This document shows positions 15,000 to 32,506 of a stretch of 64,000 bases of DNA, one piece after another. A program made the position numbers and the translations under genes. The notes under the pieces are model-generated. The model ran no database searches. It was given only the letters and a program-made list of their open reading frames with translations, and was not told the origin of the DNA. The stretch covers positions 175,335-239,334 of the forward strand of contig CAWIPY010000004.1 in NCBI GenBank assembly GCA_963837965.1, read 5' to 3'. Each line of letters starts with the position of its first letter. Positions within the stretch are counted from its first letter, which is position 1. Origin of the DNA: an uncultured Pseudomonadota bacterium. Lineage in GTDB: Bacteria > Pseudomonadota > Alphaproteobacteria > Rhizobiales > Xanthobacteraceae.

Positions 15000-15075
15000 G
15001 CCCAGGTAGCTCAGTTGGTAGAGCACGTGACTGAAAATCACGGTGTCGGTGGTTCGATTCCGCCCCTGGGCACCA
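15000..15075 (+). tRNA. tRNA-Phe(GAA)
   Basis: GCCCAGGTAGCTCAGTTGGTAGAGCACGTGACTGAAAATCACGGTGTCGGTGGTTCGATTCCGCCCCTGGGCACCA. Confidence 0.97.
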
Positions 15076-19400: not shown

Positions 19401-19790
19401 TCACACATCGGCCACTGCAATCGCTTCGATCTCTACACGCCATTCGGGTCGCGCCAGCGCGCTCACGATAAGCAAAGTGGAGGCGGGCTTGTGTCCGCCG
19501 AGAAATTCCGACCGAATCTTTCCGTAGGCGGAAACATCTCCTGAACTCGTCAAGAACGCGGTGACCTTCACGAGATCATTGACGCTCATCTGCGCTGATT
19601 TAAGAACATCGATCAGATTTCTCCACGCCTGCCGCGCCTGCGAATCAAAATCGGCCGCGGCTTTTCCCGTCGAATCGGAACCGATTTGTCCCGAAACGTA
19701 GAGCGTCCGGCTCTCCCCGGAGATCAGCATGCCCTGGCTATAGGAAAGAACAACATCCGCTTCAGGAGACGGCGAGATAGGCTTTTGCAT
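19401..19790 (-). CDS. Rid (YjgF/YER057c/UK114) family protein lacking the catalytic Arg
   Basis: LYVSGQIG, LVKVTAFL and VEIEAIA; PAST where RidA has PARS. Confidence 0.9.
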   Translation of the reverse strand: MQKPISPSPEADVVLSYSQGMLISGESRTLYVSGQIGSDSTGKAAADFDSQARQAWRNLIDVLKSAQMSVNDLVKVTAFLTSSGDVSAYGKIRSEFLGGHKPASTLLIVSALARPEWRVEIEAIAVADV

Positions 19791-19800
19791 AAGAATCTCC

Positions 19801-20652
19801 TCAAAACTCCAGCATTCGGTCGACTGATTTCATCATCGGGCCATCGATTTTTGCCAGTTCATCCAGCACGGTGAAGTGATTGCAGGCAACGACTTCGTCA
19901 TAAGAGGCGCTTCCCTTGCGGGCCTGCCAGGCGACAACGAGCTCTTTCGTCCACTGTTTGAACCCGCTCGTCTCATCGCTCCCAACCAGCCCAACCAAGG
20001 GCATCAGCTTGGCACCTTCGGCGATCTTGTTGAGTCGCAGCAGTGGGCTGGCTGCAGCCGCTTCATCTGCGGATAGGCCCAAGTCGTTGTTGACCGATGT
20101 TCGCAGCAGCGGGCGCAGATCGTACACTCCGCTGATTCCTACAACGCCGACGATAGGTCCTGCCCCGGCCACGATCTGGTCAATCGCCAACATAAGGGCA
20201 AGCTGGCCTCCGGCTGAATGGCCGGCGACAACGACGCGATCTGGCCTAAGCCGCCGCATCGCCCAGCCAAATGCCGCGCGTAGCTGTTGAACGATCTCGT
20301 GGACGCTCACTGCAGGGGCCAGGTCATACGTCGGCAAAACGACCGTAATGCCCTTGCTCTGGAACGGTTGAGCAATGAACGAAACGTAGGATTTGTCCAA
20401 TGCCCGCCAATAGCCGCCATGAACGAAAAAGAGCACAGGTGCATCCTTGCCGGCCGGGAAGATATCGAGCAGGCAACGAGGTCCGTCGGCATAGCGCAGA
20501 TCCAGTTCGCAATTCTTCAAAGCCCGAAACGATTCACTTCGTTGTTGATGGTTCAGGTAGATTTCGCCCCTCTCAGGGTGCCGCTGCCGAAGCGCATATT
20601 GCGCTTCCAGCACCTCATCGATCGTTGAAAGCGCACTATTGCCCGGCATCAT
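19801..20652 (-). CDS. Alpha/beta hydrolase, arylformamidase (kynurenine formamidase)-like
   Basis: HGGYW oxyanion motif, GHSAG nucleophile elbow, SGVYDL and NHF motifs. Confidence 0.85.
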   Translation of the reverse strand: MMPGNSALSTIDEVLEAQYALRQRHPERGEIYLNHQQRSESFRALKNCELDLRYADGPRCLLDIFPAGKDAPVLFFVHGGYWRALDKSYVSFIAQPFQSKGITVVLPTYDLAPAVSVHEIVQQLRAAFGWAMRRLRPDRVVVAGHSAGGQLALMLAIDQIVAGAGPIVGVVGISGVYDLRPLLRTSVNNDLGLSADEAAAASPLLRLNKIAEGAKLMPLVGLVGSDETSGFKQWTKELVVAWQARKGSASYDEVVACNHFTVLDELAKIDGPMMKSVDRMLEF

Positions 20653-20655
20653 CCC

Positions 20656-21369
20656 TTAAATTCCCAAATAAGCGGATTGCACCGAAGGATCCTGAGCAAG
20701 CGAGGTGCTCGCGGCACTCTGCACGATTCTTCCTTCGGTAATGACGTATCCCCAGTCGGCTGTTTGTAAGGCCATATTGGCGTTCTGTTCTGCGATCAGT
20801 ATCGTCATGCCTTCCTTGTTCAGACGCCGGATGGTGGCGAAAATGTCTTGTACGACGCGCGGCGCCAAGCCCATGGACGGTTCGTCGAGCAGCAATAACT
20901 GCGGCTTCGCCATCAAAGCCCGGCCGATCGCCAGCATCTGCTGTTCGCCGCCCGACAGCAGTCCAGCGGACTGCTTTTCTCTCTCACGAAGACGCGGGAA
21001 AAGGTCGAATACCATTTCCAAATCGCGGGGCACCTTTGGGTCGCGCCGCGGCCAAAGCCGCCGAAATGCGCCCATTTCGAGGTTCTCACGTACGCTCATC
21101 GGCGCAAAAATGCGCCGGCCTTCGGGAACGAGGGTCATGCCATGATCGAGCCGCGTTGACGCGGACGCGGAAGCAATTTCATTGTTGTTTACGCGGATGC
21201 TGCCGGTGCTTGCTCGCAGCAAGCCGGCCAGACAGCGCATAAAGGTCGTCTTGCCGGCACCGTTGGCGCCGATCAAACAGACGCATTGGCCCGCGTCTAC
21301 ACGCAAAGAGAGGTCATGCAGCACTTGAACGCTGCCATAGCCGGCATTCAGCGCGTCGACCTCAAGCAT
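20656..21369 (-). CDS. Branched-chain-type ABC transporter ATPase (LivF-like)
   Basis: GANGAGKT, LSGGEQQ and LLLDEPS motifs. Confidence 0.93.
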   Translation of the reverse strand: MLEVDALNAGYGSVQVLHDLSLRVDAGQCVCLIGANGAGKTTFMRCLAGLLRASTGSIRVNNNEIASASASTRLDHGMTLVPEGRRIFAPMSVRENLEMGAFRRLWPRRDPKVPRDLEMVFDLFPRLREREKQSAGLLSGGEQQMLAIGRALMAKPQLLLLDEPSMGLAPRVVQDIFATIRRLNKEGMTILIAEQNANMALQTADWGYVITEGRIVQSAASTSLAQDPSVQSAYLGI

Positions 21370-22135
21370 GTTTGGTCTCGCCCAAATACGCGGTTATGAC
21401 GTCCGGATTGCGCCGAACTTCCTCGGCTGAACCCTGGGCAATGCGCCAACCGTTGTTGAGCACTAAAATATCGTGCGAAAGCGACATGACCATGCGCATG
21501 TTATGCTCGACCAATAGCACCGTCATGCCGCTTCGGTTGAGCTCTGAAATTGTCTTGCCGACTTGCTCGGCCTCCTGTTGCGGCAGGCCCGCGGCCGGCT
21601 CGTCAAGCAGTAAGAGCGTTGGCTCGCATGCGAGAGCGCGTGCCAGCTCCAGCAATTTCATTTGCCCGAAGCTGAGATCGTTCGCCAGAACGGAGGCCTT
21701 TTCGATGAGACCGAATCGCTCCAAGAGGTGCATGGCCGAGTCAGTCATCGCGCGCTCCTCTGCACGAGACTTCGGGCCACGCAGGACCGTTGCGATCACG
21801 CCCGTCCTGCCGTGCAGGTGACGTCCCACCATCACGTTTTCGAGAACTGTCAATTCGCGAAATATCTGCAAATTTTGGAACGTACGCGCGATACCCAATT
21901 TGGCACGCCGGTGCGTCGGCAGATTGTCGATACGCTGGTTCTCGAACCAGATGGCGCCCGAGGTCGGGCGCGTGACGCCGGCGATCATGTTAAAAAGCGT
22001 GCTCTTCCCCGCGCCATTCGGGCCGATGACTGCCTTTATCTCGCCGGGCGCGACGCCGAAGCTCAGATCGGCGACGGCGCGGACACCCTCGAACTGGCAA
22101 TTGAGTCCTTCGACCCGCAGCAGAAGGTCGGTCAT
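21362..22135 (-). CDS. Branched-chain-type ABC transporter ATPase (LivG-like)
   Basis: GPNGAGKS, RTFQN, LLLDEPAAG and LVEH motifs; start at MTDLLL. Confidence 0.93.
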   Translation of the reverse strand: MTDLLLRVEGLNCQFEGVRAVADLSFGVAPGEIKAVIGPNGAGKSTLFNMIAGVTRPTSGAIWFENQRIDNLPTHRRAKLGIARTFQNLQIFRELTVLENVMVGRHLHGRTGVIATVLRGPKSRAEERAMTDSAMHLLERFGLIEKASVLANDLSFGQMKLLELARALACEPTLLLLDEPAAGLPQQEAEQVGKTISELNRSGMTVLLVEHNMRMVMSLSHDILVLNNGWRIAQGSAEEVRRNPDVITAYLGETKHA

Positions 22136-23121
22136 CTCGACCTCGCGCGTGCAATTCGCCCACGAATCGCTGCCGGTACACCGGCTAACCCGGAGGGTAG
22201 CATAATCAGCACGATCAGCATCGCCAGACCGAACAGCATCAGTTCCGCATCTTCGTACTGAAGCAGCAGTTGAGGGACCGCCGTATAAATCAGGGCGCCG
22301 AGCAATGGTCCCCAAAATGTGCCGCTGCCGCCGATCGCGACCATAACAACCAACAAGATCGAATTGGATACGCTGAACGTTTCGGGCGACGCGAACTGAT
22401 TTATATGAACGTAAAGACTACCCGCAAAACCGGCCATTCCGGCCGTCAGGACGAAGACGAGGAGTTTCGTGCGGAAACTGTCCACGCCAACGGCGTCAGC
22501 GCCCAATTCGTTCGTTGCGACAGCCCGCAAGGCCCGGCCCGTCCTTGAGTGCAACAGGTTCAGGATAACTACCATCGCGAAATATGATGCCAGCCACACG
22601 ACCGGAAACTGACTGAGATCGGTATTCAGCGCGAAGCCGGCGACGGAAAATGGGTTTACTCCCAACAAACCGTTCGGACCGCCGGTGACCGAAATCAATC
22701 TGTTGAAAAATACAACGAGGATCGCGTTCCAGCCGAGGGTGGCCATCGAGAGATACAAACCGCGGAGCCGGAGCGCCGGCATTCCGATCACAAGCGCGGC
22801 TAAGCCGGTGGCCGCCGTTGCGCATGGCAATCCGATCCATGGATTTACGCCAAGCTTTGCATTCAGCGCGCCGCTGACATACGCGCCGAGTCCATAGAAG
22901 CCCGCATGTCCGAGTGAAATCTGGCCACCATAACCCATGAGCAGATTCAGGCTCGCGATCAACATGATGTTTATGAACATCATGTTCGCGAGAGATATGA
23001 AGTAGGCGTTCGGTGCCGCGAGTGGAATGAGGAGGAGTATCAGCCATACCAGGATCAGGCGCAGATGCTCTGTGCGGTTCGTCGGCTTCGGCTTTGGGCG
23101 CGACGAAATTCCCCCTGCCAT
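22132..23121 (-). CDS. Branched-chain-type ABC permease (LivM-like)
   Basis: GYGGQISLGHAGF, LRLRGLYLSMATL and TGRALRAV motifs. Confidence 0.92.
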   Translation of the reverse strand: MAGGISSRPKPKPTNRTEHLRLILVWLILLLIPLAAPNAYFISLANMMFINIMLIASLNLLMGYGGQISLGHAGFYGLGAYVSGALNAKLGVNPWIGLPCATAATGLAALVIGMPALRLRGLYLSMATLGWNAILVVFFNRLISVTGGPNGLLGVNPFSVAGFALNTDLSQFPVVWLASYFAMVVILNLLHSRTGRALRAVATNELGADAVGVDSFRTKLLVFVLTAGMAGFAGSLYVHINQFASPETFSVSNSILLVVMVAIGGSGTFWGPLLGALIYTAVPQLLLQYEDAELMLFGLAMLIVLIMLPSGLAGVPAAIRGRIARARSR

Positions 23122-23197
23122 CTCGACTGACCTGCCATCCGCCGGCGCGGCCGGTCTCGTCCCAGACGAAGTGTTCCAGGGAGCCATCGTCATAGAA

Positions 23198-24079
23198 CTA
23201 TACTTTGACCACATCTGCTCGGCCCAGGAGGCCGGAAGGGCGCGCAAACAGGATGATCAGAAGGACGGCAAAGGCTATCGCGTCTTTAAAGTCGGAAGAA
23301 ATGTAGTAACTGCCGAATGCTTCGAGAAGGCCGAGCGCGATGCCCCCGGCGATCGCGCCCGGAAGACTGCCGATGCCTCCGAGCATCGCCGCACTGAACC
23401 CTTTGAAGCCGAACATCACGCCCTGGTCATATGACGAGAGCGTCAACGGTGTGATGATGGCGCCCGCCAATGCGCCGGCAAATGCTGCAATGGCAAAAGA
23501 GAGCATCACGGTGGTTTCGACGCGCACCCCGACGATCGCCGCGGCGTCGCGGTCCGCGGCGGCCGCACGCAATGCCTTGCCGATTATCGTCCACTCGAAG
23601 AAGACGTGCAGGATGAACAGAAAGGCGAGCGTCAAGCCGACGACCCACAGGGTCTGGCTCTGTACGGTGACGCTGCCAAAGCTGAGCGTGGTCGGCTGAG
23701 AGAAACTCGGATATCCGACAGGCCGCTTGCCGAGCACGAGCATGGTGAGGCTTCGCGTGGAAATCGCGAGGCCGATGCTGACCAGGGTTATCAACAGCGC
23801 GCTGGGCCGCGGGAGCGGCCAAATCACCAATCGCTCCGACAATATGCCGACGGCGGTCACAATCAGAACGGCGGCAACACAGGCAAGCCCGATGCTGTTG
23901 AAGGTAGCAAAAAGCAGCGCCGAGACCATCCCGCCCATAACGACCCATTCGCCCTGCGCAAAGTTCATGGCGCCGGTGCTTTTGAACACGACGTTGAACC
24001 CAAGGGCGATCAGCGCATAAATGCTGCCGCTGCCAATTCCTGCAACAATCAATTGCAGGACAATCGTTCCGGTGTGCAT
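23198..24079 (-). CDS. Branched-chain-type ABC permease (LivH-like)
   Basis: GSIYALIALG, NFAQGE, GKALRA and KGFSAAMLGG motifs. Confidence 0.92.
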   Translation of the reverse strand: MHTGTIVLQLIVAGIGSGSIYALIALGFNVVFKSTGAMNFAQGEWVVMGGMVSALLFATFNSIGLACVAAVLIVTAVGILSERLVIWPLPRPSALLITLVSIGLAISTRSLTMLVLGKRPVGYPSFSQPTTLSFGSVTVQSQTLWVVGLTLAFLFILHVFFEWTIIGKALRAAAADRDAAAIVGVRVETTVMLSFAIAAFAGALAGAIITPLTLSSYDQGVMFGFKGFSAAMLGGIGSLPGAIAGGIALGLLEAFGSYYISSDFKDAIAFAVLLIILFARPSGLLGRADVVKV

Positions 24080-24087
24080 CTGGACCG

Positions 24088-25023
24088 TCAGAATGTTCGC
24101 ATGCGGTTTGTTTCGAACATCGGTAGAACGATGCCGAATTCGGCGAGCTTCGTCCGCGCGTTGGCCACGTAGTTCGCCAAGGTCTCCTCTTCGGCTCTTC
24201 GCGTGGCGCCGCCCAATCCTGCGGCGGCCGTGAGCGCATCGGCCTCGGCCTCGACCGTGGCGTGTTCCGGGGCCAACCAGGGGCAGTGATACCCCTTCAA
24301 CTCCGTTTCGCGGACGTAATCGGTCAGTTCTTCACCGATAAGCGACCGCTCTTCTGCGGTCCAGTGCGGTGCGCGCGACTGAAGGTAGAGCCAGCCGAAC
24401 GCGGCATGGCGCTCCTTGTCTGAGATGATGTGGTCGAGCACCGCCCCGACGGCCGCATTACGGGTCCCTTTGCGCCAGGTCCGGCAAAGCTCGAGCTCAA
24501 GACCATCCTCGAAGGCGCAGAAACTGGCAACGTAGCTGTCGAGATGTTGCTCCGCATCCATGACGCGGCGGTGGAGATTTCGATTGAAGGTGGCTTGATA
24601 GTCGGGATTAGCCGGGCTTTCGATGCGTCCACCGAAAGACTCGGCAATCCTGTCGAAACACTCCACATGCCAGGCTTCTTCGGTATTGCGCACAGTCAGG
24701 TAGAATTTCGAGTCGATTTCCCGGCCGGTCTCCATGCAGAATCGCATTAGCAGTGCCGGCGTTTCGGTCAGGCCCGTGGCTTCCACCCAGAGGCGACGGC
24801 TCCATGTCCGTCGTGCCGCATCGCGCTCTTCCGGGGTGTACCGGTCCGACAGCAACGCGTCCCAGCCGATACTCCGGTGCGGGTTCCAGCGTCCCGCCTT
24901 GCCGCTGTCATAGAGCTGCCGAATCTCGGGCAGCGTTACATTCATTTCCAGGGGGAAGCGCCGCTCCACCAAAAGGCGGAGCGGCGGTAGCGACTCGCCT
25001 CTATTTTCGACCACCGTCGACAC
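24088..25023 (-). CDS. Ferritin-like diiron-fold protein, degenerate paralog (subunit B)
   Basis: VEATG, EEAWH, FEDGLE and DKERH (Lys in place of the second motif Glu); aligns by eye with 25025-25978; GTG start 1 nt after the upstream stop. Confidence 0.8.
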   Translation of the reverse strand: MSTVVENRGESLPPLRLLVERRFPLEMNVTLPEIRQLYDSGKAGRWNPHRSIGWDALLSDRYTPEERDAARRTWSRRLWVEATGLTETPALLMRFCMETGREIDSKFYLTVRNTEEAWHVECFDRIAESFGGRIESPANPDYQATFNRNLHRRVMDAEQHLDSYVASFCAFEDGLELELCRTWRKGTRNAAVGAVLDHIISDKERHAAFGWLYLQSRAPHWTAEERSLIGEELTDYVRETELKGYHCPWLAPEHATVEAEADALTAAAGLGGATRRAEEETLANYVANARTKLAEFGIVLPMFETNRMRTF

Positions 25024-25024
25024 G

Positions 25025-25978
25025 TCAGATCGCCCCAAGCTTAGGATGGCTGAATGGCGGGAGATTGATGCCAAGCGGCTTCATCTGATCTCGAATGCGC
25101 TTCACCGTGGAGATGAAGACGGGCTTTTCGGCTTCTTCGACTGTCGCCCCCAGTCCCGCTTCATAAGTAATGCGGTCGGCTTCGACCTCCGCGAGCGAGG
25201 CCGGATTCTCCGGAGCAAGCCAGCTGCTGTGATAACCGTTGAGCTCGACCTTTTCCATCATCGTAATGACCGAGTTTTCGATCATCTTCTTCTGCTCGGG
25301 CGTCAAGGTTTCGCAGATGGCCTCGAGGAAGTACCAGCCGAAGGCGCAGTGCCGAGACTCGTCGCGCATGATGAAGCGTACGACCTGTTTTGCGACAGGG
25401 TCGCGCGTAACATCCTCAAGATGGCGGAAGACGTCGAAGGCGATTTCTTCGGCAGTACAGACCAGTGCCGCAATGATTCCTTCGAGTGGAACGTCCTCAT
25501 TAAGGGTCGCACGGCGAACGCCGTGCGTCGATACCGACCCCTCGAAAAGCTGCTGCACGGGCTTTTCGATGTAGCCGCCCAGGCGTTCCGCCATTGTATG
25601 GCAGACTTCCGCATGCCGAGCTTCCTCCTGGGAGCGGATCGTGAAGAAGAGCTGCATGTCCGAGGGCCGCTTCTCGATCCCGAACCGAAGCTGCAGGGAC
25701 GGGCTTTCGGAAATCGCCCCGTATTCGCTCCATGCACGCCTGCTCCAGTAAAGACGCGCGGCGTAGCGCTGCTCGTCTGTATAGGCTTCAGGATCGAGTT
25801 GATCCCAATCGACATCGGTCTTGGGATCCCATTGGTTTCGTGTGGCCGCGTGAAAAAGCTCACGAATTCGCGGAAGATCGGAATTGAACGTGAGCGGGAA
25901 GCGACTTTCCGGGCCGTCGAGCAGCGTCTGCACCACCTCGAAGGCCTGCTGTTCCGACATATCGCGCGTCAGCGCCAT
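25025..25978 (-). CDS. Ferritin-like diiron oxygenase-type protein (subunit A)
   Basis: SEYGA, EEARH, AEEIA and DESRH match the E / ExxH / E / ExxH carboxylate-diiron pattern. Confidence 0.82.
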   Translation of the reverse strand: MALTRDMSEQQAFEVVQTLLDGPESRFPLTFNSDLPRIRELFHAATRNQWDPKTDVDWDQLDPEAYTDEQRYAARLYWSRRAWSEYGAISESPSLQLRFGIEKRPSDMQLFFTIRSQEEARHAEVCHTMAERLGGYIEKPVQQLFEGSVSTHGVRRATLNEDVPLEGIIAALVCTAEEIAFDVFRHLEDVTRDPVAKQVVRFIMRDESRHCAFGWYFLEAICETLTPEQKKMIENSVITMMEKVELNGYHSSWLAPENPASLAEVEADRITYEAGLGATVEEAEKPVFISTVKRIRDQMKPLGINLPPFSHPKLGAI

Positions 25979-26005: not shown

Positions 26006-27175
26006 TCAGGCATAATCGACCAGGTTAAAGCGGCCATCGCGCCAATTGATCAGCACGATGTCTTTTTTCGACAGCCCCGAATGCTTCTTTGGCGAGAAAT
26101 TGAAGACGCCGCTGACGCCGGCGAAATTCCTGATGCTCTCCAACCCTTGCGGCAGCTTCGACACGTCTCCATTGACCTTGTTGAGGCCTTCGCGGGCGAG
26201 CATGAGCGCGTCGTACAATTCTGCCGCATACACGCTGGCTTGCCGTTTGAAGCGTGCTTGATAGCTGTGGAACAGCTTGAGAATGCCCGTTTTGAGAGGA
26301 TCGCTATCGGGCAACTGGTCGCCAACCGGTAGCTTCAGGCTCGCCAGAAGGAGCGGCTTGGCCGCATCGCCGGCAAGCTTCATGTAGTGGGAGGACACGA
26401 AGCCGTAGCTATGAATGAGCGTCCGCTTATCGAGTCCGAGCTGCTGCGCCTGCTTGAGGAACACGACGCCGGCCGGGGTGACCGTCCAGCAGATGATGAC
26501 GTCGGCGCCACTGTCACGCAGCCTGGTCAATTGAGGCATCATATCCGTGTCGGCAGGTCCGAAGGATTCGTAGACCACGTCAAGATGCCGCCGCGGGGCG
26601 ACTTTGTGCATCTGCGTGACCGCACCCTGTCCGAAGCCGCTGGTATCCGCCAGCAGCGCGATTTTCTTGAACTTCTTCTTGATGCAGTAATCAGCGATGC
26701 GTTCGAGCACGTCTTCGTCGTCGACCGTGCTCTTGAAGACCCATTTTCGCTTTTCAACGGGCGTGACGATCTGCAGCGCACCTTCACTCGAGATGAAAGG
26801 CATTTTCGCTGCTTCCGCCATCGGCGCCATCGCCAGCGCGATGCCGCTCATGTTCCCGCCGCTTACAATGAGGTCGACCTTGTCCTGGCTGATGAGCCGG
26901 CGCGTTTCCGAGATGGCCTTTTGCGTCTGGCTTTCCGCGTCATAATAGGTCCAGGCGATCTTGCGTCCGCCGATTCCGCCGCTCGCATTCACTTGGTCGA
27001 CGGCAAGCTGCAGGCCGGCCTTCATATCTTCGCCCAGAAAGGCCGCCGGGCCGGTAACTGAAAGTACCGAGCCGACATGCAGAGGCTTCGTTGCGGCCCA
27101 CACGCTACGCGCGCCCGTTGTCGCCAGCATTGCCCCAGGAATGAGTTGCAGAAAGCTGCGTCTTGCAAGTGTCAC
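26006..27175 (-). CDS. ABC substrate-binding protein (LivK-like), Tat signal
   Basis: MTLARRSFLQ, SVTGPAAFLG and type I periplasmic binding protein pattern; GTG start. Confidence 0.92.
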   Translation of the reverse strand: MTLARRSFLQLIPGAMLATTGARSVWAATKPLHVGSVLSVTGPAAFLGEDMKAGLQLAVDQVNASGGIGGRKIAWTYYDAESQTQKAISETRRLISQDKVDLIVSGGNMSGIALAMAPMAEAAKMPFISSEGALQIVTPVEKRKWVFKSTVDDEDVLERIADYCIKKKFKKIALLADTSGFGQGAVTQMHKVAPRRHLDVVYESFGPADTDMMPQLTRLRDSGADVIICWTVTPAGVVFLKQAQQLGLDKRTLIHSYGFVSSHYMKLAGDAAKPLLLASLKLPVGDQLPDSDPLKTGILKLFHSYQARFKRQASVYAAELYDALMLAREGLNKVNGDVSKLPQGLESIRNFAGVSGVFNFSPKKHSGLSKKDIVLINWRDGRFNLVDYA

Positions 27176-27242: not shown

Positions 27243-28082
27243 TCAGTCGTCGTGTATCCCGCTCGTATCTATCCCGCTCGTATCGACTTGGTTTGTAAGG
27301 CCGCCGTCCTTGCGTGAGAGCGGCACATCGAGCGAATAGCGAACGAGATCGGCGCGGTGCACGGTATGCCCCGCGAGCACCAGTCGTCCGTTCGTATCCC
27401 GGTAACGCAAGGTTCGAATCAAGACGGGCGCGCCGGCCGCAAGATGCAGGTACTCGACTTCTTCCGGTCCTGCGATGCCGGCCTCGATGCCAAAGTCGCC
27501 GCTACGAAGCTCGACACGCTGCCAAAGCAAATGCAACGGCGACCCGAGCGCAGAACTTTCGTCCCAGTCGCTGACCAGATCCGCCGGAATGAGTCGGTAA
27601 TCGATCGCGACGGGCACGCGAGCGGCAGCCCGCATTCGCTTAATGAAAAGGATCGGAGTCCCGAGTTCGAGCTCCAATGCGGTCGCTGTCTGCTTATCGG
27701 CAGGTCTGCGCTCGAAAACCAGGACTGTCGGCTGGATCGGGGTCCCGCTCGCCGCCCATTGGCGCATGAAGTCCATGCTCGGCCCGAACCGCTCCTCCAG
27801 CTTGTGGACGGCGACGAAGGTGCCGAGGCCCCGGCTGCGGGTCAGTAGCCCTTCGCGGACCAGCTCCGACAGCGCCTGCCGGACGGTATCGCGGCTGACA
27901 CAGAAGAAGGCGCACAGCTGTTCATCAGAATAGAAGCGGCGGCCCGGCTGATCCCAGCGCAGGATGATTCCGATAAGTCTTTGTTTTATTTGCGCATATA
28001 GCGGTAACGGCGACGCGCGGTCGAGTGGTGGGGTCGTCCACTCATCGTCCAAACTTGTCAGTTTTTCCGACCGATCAGTCAT
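27243..28082 (-). CDS. GntR (HutC/UTRA) transcriptional regulator
   Basis: PLYAQIKQRL, VSRDTVRQALSEL and RGLGTFV; C-terminal UTRA domain; start uncertain. Confidence 0.9.
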   Translation of the reverse strand: MTDRSEKLTSLDDEWTTPPLDRASPLPLYAQIKQRLIGIILRWDQPGRRFYSDEQLCAFFCVSRDTVRQALSELVREGLLTRSRGLGTFVAVHKLEERFGPSMDFMRQWAASGTPIQPTVLVFERRPADKQTATALELELGTPILFIKRMRAAARVPVAIDYRLIPADLVSDWDESSALGSPLHLLWQRVELRSGDFGIEAGIAGPEEVEYLHLAAGAPVLIRTLRYRDTNGRLVLAGHTVHRADLVRYSLDVPLSRKDGGLTNQVDTSGIDTSGIHDD

Positions 28083-28656
28083 AAGCCGAGGACACAACTG
28101 AGATTGCCTGATTGTCTGCTTAATCATACATTCTGGCAAGCTGTTTTCTCTGGCCGAGGAAAAGAAAATATAGTGTCCGCTTGCGCGGCGGCCTTCGGCG
28201 GATCCGGAAAGACTACAGAAACCGACAAAAAACTGCGTGGACTATTCGCGAAATAGATTTCTGCGTCTCGGTGCGCCGAGATGAATATTGCAGTGAATGA
28301 GCCCGGGACTCGTGCCTTACCAATACTGTTTGAATTTTTCCTTTTGCTTCGGCGCGGTCAGCCGATTGGCGCGTTTTGCTCCACGGATCTGGATCGGCAG
28401 TCGATTTGCCATCGTGCGAACTTCCGTCGAGTTGCGATTGCTGTTGAGCGCCAGCGCGGCAGAGGTCGCCCGCGCTGCGAACGAAGCAATGGCTGCGACA
28501 TTGCAGGCTGCCGAAATGGCAACAAGGTCTTCGCGCAAAGTTCGACGGATTTTCCGGCCCAATATGGGACGCTCGCCCGCGTGGCTCTTATCCAAACGAG
28601 GACACTCGCTCACGTGCAGGCGATGGCGGCTTAACGCTTATTGAAGCGGTCGTTGG

Positions 28657-29322: not shown

Positions 29323-29375
29323 ACTTATGGACTTTGGCCGGGGTCCGAATCCAGAGTTCGAAGCAGGGGCCAGCC

Positions 29376-30527
29376 ATGAATCCGAAATCACCGGCAAATA
29401 CGAGCGAGCCGTGGCGCGTTGGCGTTCTCTTCTCCCGCACCGGCTTCATGGCGATCATCGAAGAAACGCAAGTCCATGGCACGTTGATCGCAATCGAAGA
29501 AATCAACGAGCGTGGCGGCATCAATGGCCGCGAACTCGTTCCGGTCATTTACGATCCCGCTTCCGAGAATGCGCTGTTTAGGGCTTATGCGAAGCGCATG
29601 ATCGTTGAAGATCAGCTTTCGACAATCTTTGGTTGCTACACGTCCAGCAGCCGCAAAGCCGTCTTGCCGATCGTCGAGCGGCTGAACTGCCTGCTCTGGT
29701 ATCCGACCCTCTACGAGGGCTTCGAATACTCCCCCAATGTCATCTATACCGGCGCCGCGCCAAACCAGAACAGCGTTTCCCTCTGCCAATTTCTCACCGA
29801 GAAATACGGGAACCGCTTCTACCTTATCGGTTCCGACTACGTATATCCGCGCGAGTCGAACCGGGTGATGCGCGAACTCCTGAACAAACGCGGCGGCCAA
29901 GTCGTCGGTGAGCGCTATGTCGGCCTGCGGGCGTCGCGACGAGACTTCGTCCCGGTCCTCAACGAGATCCGCGAGCTTTCGCCCGACGTCATCTTCTCCA
30001 CGGTCGTGGGCGAAGCCACCATCTACCTCTACCAGGCCTATGCCGATTTCGGGTTCGATCCGCGCAACATGCCGATTGCGAGCCTGACCACTACGGAGAC
30101 CGAAATCCGCGCCATGGGGTCGGACGTGGGCGAGGGCCATATCACGGCGGCGCCTTATTTCGAGGGCTTGCCCGGAGCGGCCAACGACGCCTTTGTGAAG
30201 CGCTACAAGCGCCGCTTTGGCGACGACCAGTCCACCAATATGTGCGTGGAAGCGGCGTATTTTCAGGTCCATCTGTTTGCACGCGCGCTGGAACTCGCCA
30301 ACTCGCTGGATCCGGAGATTCTGCGGCCCATGGTTCTCGGCTCCAGCTTGGAGGCGCCCCAGGGCACTGTTTCGATCGACGCGGGGTGCAGCCATGCCAA
30401 TCTCTGGAGTCGCATCGGCCGGGCAAACGGTCGCGGCCAATTCGACCTGCTGCAGGAATCGTCTTCCCTGGTGCCGCCCGATCCGTTCCTGACCGGAACC
30501 GGCTTCGGCCGGCTGGTCCCAGCGTAA
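29376..30527 (+). CDS. amiC: Cytoplasmic amide sensor AmiC
   Basis: Periplasmic-binding fold without signal peptide; GCYTSSSRKAVLP and YPTLYEG motifs; adjacent to an ANTAR regulator. Confidence 0.88.
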   Translation: MNPKSPANTSEPWRVGVLFSRTGFMAIIEETQVHGTLIAIEEINERGGINGRELVPVIYDPASENALFRAYAKRMIVEDQLSTIFGCYTSSSRKAVLPIVERLNCLLWYPTLYEGFEYSPNVIYTGAAPNQNSVSLCQFLTEKYGNRFYLIGSDYVYPRESNRVMRELLNKRGGQVVGERYVGLRASRRDFVPVLNEIRELSPDVIFSTVVGEATIYLYQAYADFGFDPRNMPIASLTTTETEIRAMGSDVGEGHITAAPYFEGLPGAANDAFVKRYKRRFGDDQSTNMCVEAAYFQVHLFARALELANSLDPEILRPMVLGSSLEAPQGTVSIDAGCSHANLWSRIGRANGRGQFDLLQESSSLVPPDPFLTGTGFGRLVPA

Positions 30528-30542
30528 CGGGAGCGCGCAGCG

Positions 30543-31121
30543 ATGGCGCCGCCGCGGCATGAGACGGAAAAATTATCGGTCCTCGTCGCGGCGGAACGCG
30601 ATGCCCAGGTCGACCTGCTGTTGCGCGAATTGCGGCGAAGCGCCAGCCACGTCATTCACCTGTTTCCGGTGACGGACCGGCTGCCGGCCGAGCACGACAT
30701 CATCCTGGCCGATATCAGTCTCCCATTGTCGGATCAGTTGCCTTGGGTGCCCGGCGAGGCCACCGCCGCGCTGATCCTTCTCCTTCCCGAAAACGGCCAG
30801 CACTCGCTGAAAAAGCTGCGCGCTTGCTGTCCGGACGCGGTGCTCCACCGTCCGTTCCAGCCGAGCGCGATCCTGACGAGCCTGGTGATCGCGCGCAGCC
30901 AGTTCCAGTTCATCCGGCGGCTGCGCAGCCGAATCGCGCGTCTCGACGAGAACATCAAGGCGATTCGCGACATAGAGCGCGCCAAATTGATCGTTATGGA
31001 CATGCGCCGGATCGGCGAAGACGAAGCCTACGCATATTTGCGCAGCCAGGCCATGGAGCGACGCACGACCGTCGCCTCCTTCGCCTCCCATCTTGTTGAC
31101 TCCCACCAACTGCTCGGTTAG
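30543..31121 (+). CDS. amiR: AmiR-type ANTAR antiterminator (pseudo-receiver + ANTAR)
   Basis: C-terminal IERAKLIVM...EDEAYAYLRSQAMERR ANTAR motif. Confidence 0.88.
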   Translation: MAPPRHETEKLSVLVAAERDAQVDLLLRELRRSASHVIHLFPVTDRLPAEHDIILADISLPLSDQLPWVPGEATAALILLLPENGQHSLKKLRACCPDAVLHRPFQPSAILTSLVIARSQFQFIRRLRSRIARLDENIKAIRDIERAKLIVMDMRRIGEDEAYAYLRSQAMERRTTVASFASHLVDSHQLLG

Positions 31122-31150
31122 CTTTCTGTTCGCTGCCCACGCTGGCGGCC

Positions 31151-31233
31151 GCGGCAACAGCGCCGCCTACATCGAAACAGGCATCAAAGCCTCACAACGA
31201 ACCGCCCGTTCGTCGTGGGGCTTTTTGTTTTTT
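31151..31233 (+). promoter_or_regulatory. ANTAR dual-hairpin leader overlapping an intrinsic terminator (site 1)
   Basis: P1 GCGGC-AACAGC-GCCGC; P2 AGGC-ATCAAA-GCCT; terminator AAAGCCTCAC...GTGGGGCTTT plus T tract. Confidence 0.8.
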
Positions 31234-31252
31234 GTTCTGGGAGAACACGAAC

Positions 31253-32506
31253 ATGAGCATAAAGAGGCGTGACTTCCTGAAGGCAACGGCTGCGGCTGGC
31301 GCTGCCGCTTCTTTCGGATTCCCTCACATCTGGATCAAGAACGCCGATCTCGCGCACGCGGCCGGCGGCGAGATCAAGGTTGGCGTACTGTACTCATTGA
31401 CCGGCACCACGGCGATCATCGAGACGTCGCTGAATCAGGCCTGCCTGATGGCGATCGAAGAGATCAACGCCGCCGGTGGCATCAACGGCATGAAGCTGAA
31501 GCCGGTCGTGGAGGATCCCGCCTCCGATCCGGCCACCTTCGCGCAGAAAGCCCGCAAACTCGTCCTCGGCGACAAGTGCGTCAGCGTGTTCGGCTCCTAC
31601 ACCTCGGCGAGCCGCAAGGCCGTGCTGCCGGTCTTCGAGAAGTACCACAATCTCTATTGGTATCCGACCCTCTACGAGGGCCGCGAATGCTCGATGAACG
31701 TGATCTACACGGGCGCAGTGCCCAACCAGCAGCAGCAGGATTTCGTCCCCTGGCTGATGAAGAACTTCGGCAAGAAGTTCTATCTGATCGGGTCGAACTA
31801 CATCTATCCGAAGGAAGAGAACAACGTCTGTAAGATCCTGCTCAAGCGGCTGGGCGGCGAAGTGGTCGGCGAGGAATACGTGCCGCTCGGTCATTCCGAG
31901 TTCAGCTCCGTGATCCAGAAATTCAAGGACACCAAGCCGAACGTCATCTTCTCAACCGTGGTGGGCGACTCCGTGGTGGCGCTGCACCGCCAGTACAAGG
32001 CGGCGGGTCTCGATCCGGCCAAGATGCCGATGGCGAGCCTGACCACGTCGGAAGAGGAAATCGCGGCGATGGGCGGCGAGTTCGCCACCGGGCACTTCAC
32101 CTCGGCGCCGTACTTCATGTCGTACGACTCGCCGGAAAATCACAAGTTCGTCGAGGCCTTCAAGAAGAAATACGGCAAGGACAAGGTGACGAACTTCGTC
32201 TCCGAGCCCGCCTATTTCCAGGTCTACCTGTTCAAACAGGCGGTCGAGAAGCTCGGCGGCAAGAATCTCACCCCGCCCGAAATCCGCAAGGCGGCTTGGG
32301 GTCAGCAATTCAAGGCCCCGCAAGGCCTGGTGAAGATCGACCCGGATAACTCGCATACCTACCTCTGGCCGAAGATCGGCGAGGCCCAGTCGAACGGCCA
32401 GTTCAAGATCATCGAACAGGTCAAGGAATGGGTCGAGCCCAAGCCTTACTGGGCCTATCAGGGGCAGGTCTGCACGCCGACCGGCCTTAAGATGACCAAG
32501 TCATAA
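31253..32506 (+). CDS. urtA: Urea/amide ABC substrate-binding protein, Tat signal
   Basis: MSIKRRDFLK, SLTGTTAIIE, GSYTSASRKAVLP and YPTLYEG motifs. Confidence 0.88.
   Translation: MSIKRRDFLKATAAAGAAASFGFPHIWIKNADLAHAAGGEIKVGVLYSLTGTTAIIETSLNQACLMAIEEINAAGGINGMKLKPVVEDPASDPATFAQKARKLVLGDKCVSVFGSYTSASRKAVLPVFEKYHNLYWYPTLYEGRECSMNVIYTGAVPNQQQQDFVPWLMKNFGKKFYLIGSNYIYPKEENNVCKILLKRLGGEVVGEEYVPLGHSEFSSVIQKFKDTKPNVIFSTVVGDSVVALHRQYKAAGLDPAKMPMASLTTSEEEIAAMGGEFATGHFTSAPYFMSYDSPENHKFVEAFKKKYGKDKVTNFVSEPAYFQVYLFKQAVEKLGGKNLTPPEIRKAAWGQQFKAPQGLVKIDPDNSHTYLWPKIGEAQSNGQFKIIEQVKEWVEPKPYWAYQGQVCTPTGLKMTKS

Follow-up and report, generated by a model that had tools for sequence, protein, structure and literature searches.

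R2-like ligand-binding oxidases (R2lox) have been the subject of structural and spectroscopic study for more than a decade, and they are still without a known substrate or biological role. A design of one catalytic and one degenerate subunit is seen in PaaA/PaaC and in the soluble diiron monooxygenases (SDIMOs). In addition, 2-aminoisobutyrate hydroxylase, AibH1H2, is a heterodimer of paralogues with a dinuclear Mn/Fe site in one subunit only (PMC10401708). This paper deals with two tandem genes, here called A and B, which lie in a stretch of 64,000 nucleotides (the window hereafter) of contig CAWIPY010000004.1 (GenBank assembly GCA_963837965.1, positions 175,335 to 239,334 of the forward strand) from an uncultured bacterium of the Xanthobacteraceae. 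It seems to us rather likely that their products constitute a heteromeric R2lox/R2-like dimetal-carboxylate enzyme, which performs the O2-dependent step of a compact, mobile catabolic module containing an importer, a repressor and a hydrolase as well. No publication on the A/B family was found in the literature, and an initial annotation, made from the sequence alone, had proposed the pair to be a new two-subunit diiron oxygenase.

That annotation described two similar genes of about 310 codons lying 1 nucleotide apart, and coordinates (Table 1), spacing and an identity of 34% across 292 residues (E 3e-56) all agree with it; judged from this similarity, which is far beyond chance, A and B are evidently paralogues. 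The open frame of B extends from 24088 to 25074, and the GTG at 25023, 1 nucleotide past the TGA of A (the junction reads ATC TGA C GTG), was taken as its start because of the homologues with TGAnATG junctions, which are found in many orthologous loci. In at least 50 loci the stop codon of A and the start codon of B are separated by 6 nucleotides or less, or overlap, in the form of TGAnATG or TGATG, a spacing that has the appearance of translational coupling.

The conservation of the metal sites was counted in an alignment of 41 A-B pairs taken from the window and related genomes, and A was checked a second time in a set of 63 orthologues. The motifs SEYGA (E85), EEARH (E119 and H122), AEEIA (E178) and DESRH (E207 and H210) give A the E/ExxH/E/ExxH six-ligand dimetal pattern which characterizes R2lox. 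None of E85, E118/E119, H122, E177/E178 and H210 varies among the 41 paired orthologues, position 207 is E in 40 of them and K in the remaining one, and the six ligands are invariant in the set of 63 as well. Moreover, when A is aligned with R2loxII from Sulfolobus by HMMER, E178 and the DE(S/V)RH motif fall on the ligands of the latter. The motifs of B, on the other hand, are EEAWH and DKERH: at position 203, where the second ExxH would have its Glu, there is K in 38 orthologues, R in three and E in none of the 41, and H119, the His of the first ExxH, is replaced by Q in 10 of the 41, while E81, E116, D173 and H206 are almost invariant. Such site changes, together with the residues kept across orthologues, indicate that B is a conserved and systematically degenerate paralogue, not a decaying gene, and the variation at positions 119 (H/Q) and 203 (K/R) argues against a conserved metal centre in B. 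All the motifs on which the initial annotation had relied, that is, the full set of carboxylate-diiron ligands in A and, in B, EEAWH and DKERH with Lys in place of Glu, are therefore present, and its view of a catalytic-type ferritin-fold subunit accompanied by a degenerate one is borne out by the kept site of A and the K or R at position 203 of B in 41 of 41 pairs. Furthermore, A has several conserved residues outside the ligand set. C126, four residues past H122, is invariant in the 41 pairs and present in at least 90% of the 63 sequences, at the place of the radical Tyr in the R2 subunit of ribonucleotide reductase (RNR). C174 and C211, which flank the ligands, are invariant, and so are D182 and H186, four and eight residues past E178, respectively.

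Related loci, 80 in number, were taken from 185,579 species genomes, and in 77 of them B directly follows A; the three exceptions are a locus at a contig end (L070) and two with disrupted genes (L031 and L075). Homologues therefore come as adjacent pairs, not usually as single genes, and as far as gene order can tell the co-occurrence of A and B is near-obligate. To model the two subunits in one chain, A and B were read as a fusion (TGAN=G), and this chain was aligned with 11 natural pairs in which an in-frame TGA is read through (12 paired rows) and with 63 B-only sequences; alignments mixing fusion, A-only and B-only sequences were discarded, as their B rows landed on the A half. The AlphaFold2 (AF2) model of the 629-residue read-through fusion has a mean predicted local distance difference test score (pLDDT) of 87.9 and a predicted TM-score (pTM) of 0.88, and disorder is restricted to the termini and the linker (318-329). 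Since the pTM of 0.88 refers to the whole chain, the mutual arrangement of the two domains is predicted confidently. The packing of both domains against each other in this single-chain model supports the formation of a heteromer by A and B, and an interface of the kind sought by the initial annotation is thus predicted. A protein of 636 residues (P0169), considered as a natural A-B fusion, was rejected, as it is a frame-scrambled gene call. In five loci (L066, L074, L080, L081 and L082) a single B is preceded by two genes of the A type, each encoding the complete set of ligands, which suggests alternative catalytic subunits with a common scaffold subunit.

As to the family of the proteins, the Pfam model AurF (PF11583) is passed by A marginally and in two stretches (31.7 bits against a gathering cut-off of 29.6) and is not matched by B. 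Below threshold A also matches DUF455 and R2 (Ribonuc_red_sm, 21.1 bits against 33.6), and with B no Pfam family was matched at all. The best NCBIfam matches are to R2lox models, the cut-offs of which are 194-315, at 25.1 bits for A (NF006200, cut-off 194) and 16.7 bits for B. Sequence and profile searches of the PDB with the pair gave marginal matches only, among them de novo designed helix bundles, and none was significant. A search of 5.8 billion proteins yielded 508 relatives, and those of the best 120 that have a name at all are labelled “hypothetical” or “ferritin-like”, with “rubrerythrin” or “AurF” as isolated cases; PF11583 stands in the precomputed annotation of many homologues. Among 1.84 billion representatives clustered at 50% identity there are 526 proteins at E 1e-3 and 38 at E 1e-30, so that the A/B family would appear to be small and isolated.

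The AF2 model of A (pLDDT 86.4, pTM 0.84) places the family more closely. Searched with Foldseek, it finds R2lox first (E 3e-6, probability 1.00, TM 0.56-0.66 over about 290 columns, 16-18% identity) and RNR R2 second; the same order is obtained with the A-B fusion model, and for both models together the matches to R2lox have E values of 3e-6 to 1e-5, TM-scores of 0.55-0.68 and 16-19% identity. The best 50 matches are all R2lox or RNR R2, and AurF, CmlI, PaaA, BoxB, MiaE and SDIMO are not among these 50. According to these models, the pair would have an R2/R2lox-like fold and stand outside every characterised family. The authors of the initial annotation did not recognise the proteins as PaaA/PaaC or SDIMO, and the Pfam, NCBIfam and PDB searches likewise assign none; nor is the pair claimed by any characterised family in the searches they had suggested (AurF, PaaA/C, BoxB, MiaE and SDIMO). 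Their comparison with PaaA/PaaC and SDIMO is sound as an analogy of subunit logic and fails by fold, since R2lox and RNR R2 are nearest. Similarly, in the phrase “new two-subunit diiron oxygenase” the two subunits, the degenerate partner and the absence of a known family stand, while “oxygenase” is to be read as a presumption, and so is “diiron”: the nearest relatives use Mn/Fe.

The surroundings of the pair are kept across a wide range of hosts. The order GntR, binding protein, A, B, LivH, LivM, LivG, LivF and hydrolase, with or without a Rid gene at the end, is found from Bradyrhizobium, Xanthobacter and Azospirillum to Achromobacter, Variovorax, Ottowia and Comamonas. Three marine alphaproteobacterial loci, situated beside mutS, are reduced to GntR, A with a further A-type gene, B and the hydrolase, and these minimal loci indicate that the oxidase pair and the hydrolase are the core. 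In most loci the hydrolase is a kynurenine-formamidase-like α/β hydrolase. Its slot is, however, taken in one clade by an amidase-signature enzyme, namely in L050, L063, L071 and L080 (PF01425, 316-342 bits) and also in L065 (by similarity) and L081 (by its match to L080), and by a different Abhydrolase_3 protein in L032; in L049 and L060 an additional amidohydrolase of the creatininase family lies between B and livH. Such non-orthologous displacement of the hydrolase argues that amide hydrolysis is an obligatory step of the pathway. The link to an importer and an amide hydrolase, overlooked in the initial annotation, is the main functional clue.

The initial annotation also stated that the usual coupling, ferredoxin or reductase genes were not to be seen; indeed, no reductase, ferredoxin or coupling-protein gene was found in the operon of the window, nor does one turn up repeatedly beside about 75 related loci. 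The neighbourhood survey that it had called for ties the pair to the GntR regulator, the Liv importer and the hydrolase, and to no recurring reductase. Clustering of the flanking open reading frames (ORFs) yielded mostly antisense shadow ORFs. The sole real recurrent extra gene in the flanks codes for a protein of about 430 amino acids; it stands in divergent orientation to the GntR gene in 20 related loci (for example, L001, 6438-7727, minus strand) of Achromobacter, Variovorax, Ottowia, Comamonas and others and is absent from the window. The protein matches no Pfam or NCBIfam family and may be an optional component of the module. In addition, a single-subunit relative (27% identity) is encoded on the megaplasmid of Variovorax paradoxus VAI-C (L084, CP063167.1, 636048-637067), directly upstream of a 2Fe-2S reductase-like gene and in a cluster with a CoA ligase, a CoA transferase, a thiolase, an enoyl-CoA hydratase, PaaN and a Liv-type importer. 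This position beside a reductase in an aryl-CoA-type cluster suggests that members of the wider family are used as oxygenases, and the relative is a candidate for a new aryl-CoA oxygenase.

Table 1. Genes of the A/B operon in the window (positions counted from the first nucleotide of the window)
Feature	Position	Strand	Remarks
GntR/HutC-type regulator	27243-28139	minus	Pfam UTRA (effector domain), 82 bits, and GntR (HTH), 42 bits; start codon uncertain
Periplasmic substrate-binding protein of HAAT/Liv-type ABC importer	26006-27175	minus	Pfam Peripla_BP_6, 184 bits
Subunit A	25025-25978	minus	317 amino acids, ATG start; predicted R2lox/R2-like ferritin fold with complete dimetal-carboxylate site; presumed catalytic
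Subunit B	24088-25023	minus	Paralogue of A with degenerate metal site; no Pfam family; presumed non-catalytic partner
LivH-type ABC permease	23198-24079	minus	Pfam BPD_transp_2, 123 bits; position conserved
LivM-type ABC permease	22132-23247	minus	Homologue in related locus L001 has BPD_transp_2; conserved in related loci
LivG-type ABC ATPase	21362-22315	minus	Walker A GPNGAGKST; homologue in L001 has ABC_tran and BCA_ABC_TP_C; conserved
LivF-type ABC ATPase	20656-21369	minus	Homologue in L001 has ABC_tran; conserved in related loci
α/β hydrolase, kynurenine-formamidase/HSL type	19801-20652	minus	Pfam Abhydrolase_3 and BD-FAE; presumed to split an amide or formamide in the pathway
Rid/YjgF-family protein, optional last gene	19401-19790	minus	Pfam Ribonuc_L-PSP, 86 bits

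In the window the operon has all the parts just described (Table 1). The regulator, which lies upstream of the operon in most related loci, is closest to HutC among the NCBIfam models, below cut-off. The binding protein is 50-83% identical in related loci, and its best PDB matches, 3sg0 (E 1e-31) and 4dqd (E 2e-30), are both entitled “extracellular ligand-binding receptor”. We believe these two to be binders of aromatic 2-oxo acids, which serves as a lead only, and a literature search on their ligands returned nothing relevant. The listed ORF of livM overlaps livH and its true start is probably further downstream, and that of livG is probably downstream of the listed TTG. The hydrolase has the motifs HGG at residue 78 and GHSAG at 144 and matches 9n8r, 2pbl and the kynurenine formamidase of Drosophila (4e11) in the PDB (E 4e-19). 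The Rid protein reads PAST in place of PARS and so is devoid of the catalytic Arg. In 38 operon-linked homologues this position is S in 24, A in 14 and R in none, and to judge from these sequences the operon-linked Rid proteins form an Arg-less subfamily. The canonical imine-deaminase role of RidA was rejected on this ground; being missing from about half of the loci and without the catalytic Arg, Rid is accessory and probably not a classical imine deaminase.

The cassette occurs in about 100 of the 185,579 species genomes. The pair was found in two of 37 genomes of the genus to which the window belongs, but neither in 24 further families of the order nor in 400 additional genomes sampled evenly from the phylum. 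The operon lies downstream of a tRNA-Phe gene, in a stretch with a guanine + cytosine (G + C) content of 0.56-0.60, against 0.65-0.69 in the surroundings. Among RNA-seq runs, none was found to cover the window. The cassette is a rare, horizontally spread accessory module, the hosts of which are soil, sludge and marine Proteobacteria, and this rarity and horizontal spread suggest that it serves the use of a specialised natural or xenobiotic nitrogen compound. The tRNA-Phe gene itself is at 15000-15075 and is followed, from about 16000 to 37000, by a stretch of 0.56-0.62 G + C with 0.65-0.69 on both sides, in which a Fic-type gene, a trypsin-like protease gene and then the A/B operon are located; this arrangement resembles that of a genomic island inserted at tRNA-Phe. 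Beside the operon, at 29334-32506, there are genes for an AmiC-like binding protein, an AmiR/ANTAR-like regulator and a further binding protein of the UrtA/amide type, which make up a separate amide-utilisation locus; in other genomes this locus does not accompany the A/B cassette.

In the mechanism that we infer, A would carry an Fe/Fe or Mn/Fe site and do the chemistry, and B would be an obligate structural partner which lacks a functional metal site and replaces the second protomer of an R2-type homodimer. The Liv-type ABC importer would take up a small nitrogen-containing organic acid, the GntR/HutC-type repressor would sense this acid or a product of it, A/B would oxidise it and the adjacent hydrolase would cleave an amide bond. 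The order favoured here is oxidation first, as a four-electron reaction with no external reductant, on account of the type of hydrolase, the absence of a reductase and the existence of precedents for four-electron diiron chemistry, namely the last step of AurF and MIOX. In one version A/B would convert a C-N methylene or methyl group to an amide or formamide, and in another it would open the ring of an N-heterocycle to give an enamine with an N-formyl or N-acyl group; from the product the amidase or formamidase-like hydrolase would then release formate or an acid together with an amine or enamine, and the Arg-less Rid would be an accessory. A member of the ring-cleavage class that was considered is a pathway in which A/B takes the place of tryptophan 2,3-dioxygenase upstream of the formamidase-like hydrolase. 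The boldest form, to which we give a rather small chance, is that an A/B heterodimer with Mn/Fe or Fe/Fe uses O2 alone, with no reductase, for a four-electron oxidation of an imported carboxylate of the N-heterocyclic or N-alkyl kind, a C-N unit of which becomes N-formyl or N-acyl through ring cleavage or methylene-to-amide oxidation, after which the formamidase or amidase hydrolyses the product; A/B would then be the first R2lox-like protein with a physiological role.

Several points weigh against this mechanism. AurF, ADO and desaturases use housekeeping ferredoxins, so the lack of a linked reductase is not the same as independence of a reductant, and the hydrolase could act before the oxidase. 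The likeness to R2lox is modest (TM about 0.6, root-mean-square deviation 4-6 Å), and we know of no R2lox protein with an established physiological reaction. The A-B interface was obtained by modelling both subunits as one fused chain, with 12 paired rows and judged by pLDDT and pTM alone, and AF2 may merely reproduce the packing of the R2 homodimer. Furthermore, the Arg-less Rid makes a role in quenching an enamine or imine doubtful.

If the reductant is not dispensed with, A/B might be a conventional reductant-dependent monooxygenase that takes electrons from an unlinked housekeeping ferredoxin and reductase, with the hydrolase acting first on an imported amide and the freed amine or acid being hydroxylated afterwards. 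Many ferritin-like oxygenases have no dedicated reductase, and for such an enzyme speak the subunit logic, which is that of PaaA/PaaC, the 2Fe-2S reductase gene adjoining the distant relative in Variovorax, and D182, which by its distance of four residues from E178 stands at the active-site Thr position of multicomponent monooxygenases. However, a reductase, ferredoxin or coupling protein recurs nowhere among the approximately 75 loci, the PaaA model gives 15.6 bits against a cut-off of 280, and no PaaA, BoxB or SDIMO structure is among the best 50 fold matches, so we regard a monooxygenase of this kind as a somewhat unlikely solution. The marginal pass of PF11583, which is the best family match of A (31.7 against 29.6 bits) and recurs in the precomputed annotation of the homologues, and the fact that AurF works without a dedicated reductase might instead point to an N-oxygenase of the AurF/CmlI type, which would convert an amine to a hydroxylamine, nitroso or nitro compound. 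Against it, B has no such match, position 203 of A, four before E207, is I in 37 and V in four of the 41 orthologues (the place of H223, the third His ligand, in AurF), AurF and CmlI are absent from the best 50 fold matches, and the obligatory amide hydrolase would be left unexplained; such an activity is highly unlikely.

The closeness of the fold to RNR R2 and R2lox, C126 at the place of the R2 radical Tyr and C174 and C211 beside the ligands leave some room for A/B not being a substrate oxidase but an R2-like generator of a radical or cofactor for a partner, or else a protein that binds a ligand or metal, as R2lox does when isolated. We consider this very unlikely, for nothing in the operon, R1-like or otherwise, is a plausible partner to accept a radical, an importer and a hydrolase under a local repressor are typical of catabolism, and A has neither the radical Tyr nor the crosslink residues of R2lox. 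Finally, the near invariance of E81, E116, D173 and H206 in B, and the flexible stoichiometry implied by loci with two A-type genes and B, would fit two separate homodimeric enzymes, B having a mononuclear or alternative site; near-universal adjacency, the coupled spacing, the whole-chain pTM of 0.88 and the variable site of B (H/Q at 119 and K/R at 203) speak against it, and there is hardly any likelihood of such an arrangement. The heteromeric oxidase of an imported nitrogen compound is therefore the reading kept here.

If the boldest form above is true, the R2 scaffold would gain a new reaction class, and the imported carboxylates a new mineralisation route. A/B may turn out to supply an amidase by an oxidation that needs no reductase, and the pair would extend the catalytic plus degenerate design to the R2 branch of the ferritin superfamily. 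Moreover, the A/B family is the nearest relative of R2lox found here, and it has a built-in context of importer, binding protein, repressor and amide hydrolase which opens its chemistry to experiment: what the binding protein binds, or what the repressor responds to, should be the substrate itself or something close to it.

Among known systems, R2lox was compared through the structures from Geobacillus kaustophilus (4hr0, 4xbw and 6f6c), M. tuberculosis (Rv0233, 3ee4 and 4ac8) and Sulfolobus (6qrz and 7qbk). A/B is like R2lox in the E/ExxH/E/ExxH ligand set, in the DE(S/V)RH motif aligned with SaR2loxII and in having no dedicated reductase. It is unlike R2lox in that identity is as low as 16-19% and scores are at most 25 bits on NCBIfam models with cut-offs of 194-315, and in that R2lox is a homodimer whereas A/B is predicted to be a catalytic and degenerate pair. 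R2lox is further marked by a Mn/Fe cofactor and a fatty acid as bound ligand. In addition, the positions of the Val-Tyr crosslink, which were mapped by helical offset, are Ala88 (E85+3) and Val173 (E178-5) in A, both invariant; the crosslink residues of GkR2loxI are V72 and Y162, a numbering which agrees with the mutant names among the structure matches. To our knowledge, R2lox has not been described inside an importer/hydrolase operon. RNR R2 (classes Ia-Ie) is the second-best fold class and has the same ligand pattern, and the change of Glu to Lys in B recalls the metal-free class Ie R2 with Lys for a ligand, 7mmp and 8bt4 being among the matches. On the other hand, the position of the radical Tyr (or of the Phe of class Ic) is Cys126 in A, invariant in 41 sequences, the operon contains no R1-like gene, its context is catabolic and the score to Ribonuc_red_sm is 21.1 against 33.6 bits.

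With PaaA/PaaC and with the α and β subunits of SDIMO the pair shares the combination of a ferritin-fold catalytic subunit with a paralogue lacking metal ligands. It differs from PaaA/PaaC in the score to TIGR02156 (15.6 bits against 280) and in having no PaaB, PaaD or PaaE neighbours in the window or related loci, and from SDIMO in size, A and B being about 310 amino acids each against about 500 for the α subunit, and in the absence of a coupling protein or reductase. AurF and CmlI resemble A in being ferritin-like and reductase-free and in PF11583, which A passes marginally; they differ in the third His, which is missing in A (I or V at 203), in leaving B unmatched and in a fold further from that of A/B than R2lox is. 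AibH1H2 works with a Rieske ferredoxin and a reductase, unlike the A/B operon. The fold of AibH1H2 is taken to be a different one, as the word “ferritin” does not occur in the main text of its description (PMC10401708) and 8FUN is not among the 50 listed fold matches. Nevertheless, AibH1H2 offers a functional analogy, since it too is a catabolic pair of paralogues with one metal site, as proposed for A/B, and acts on a small amino acid (PMC10401708).

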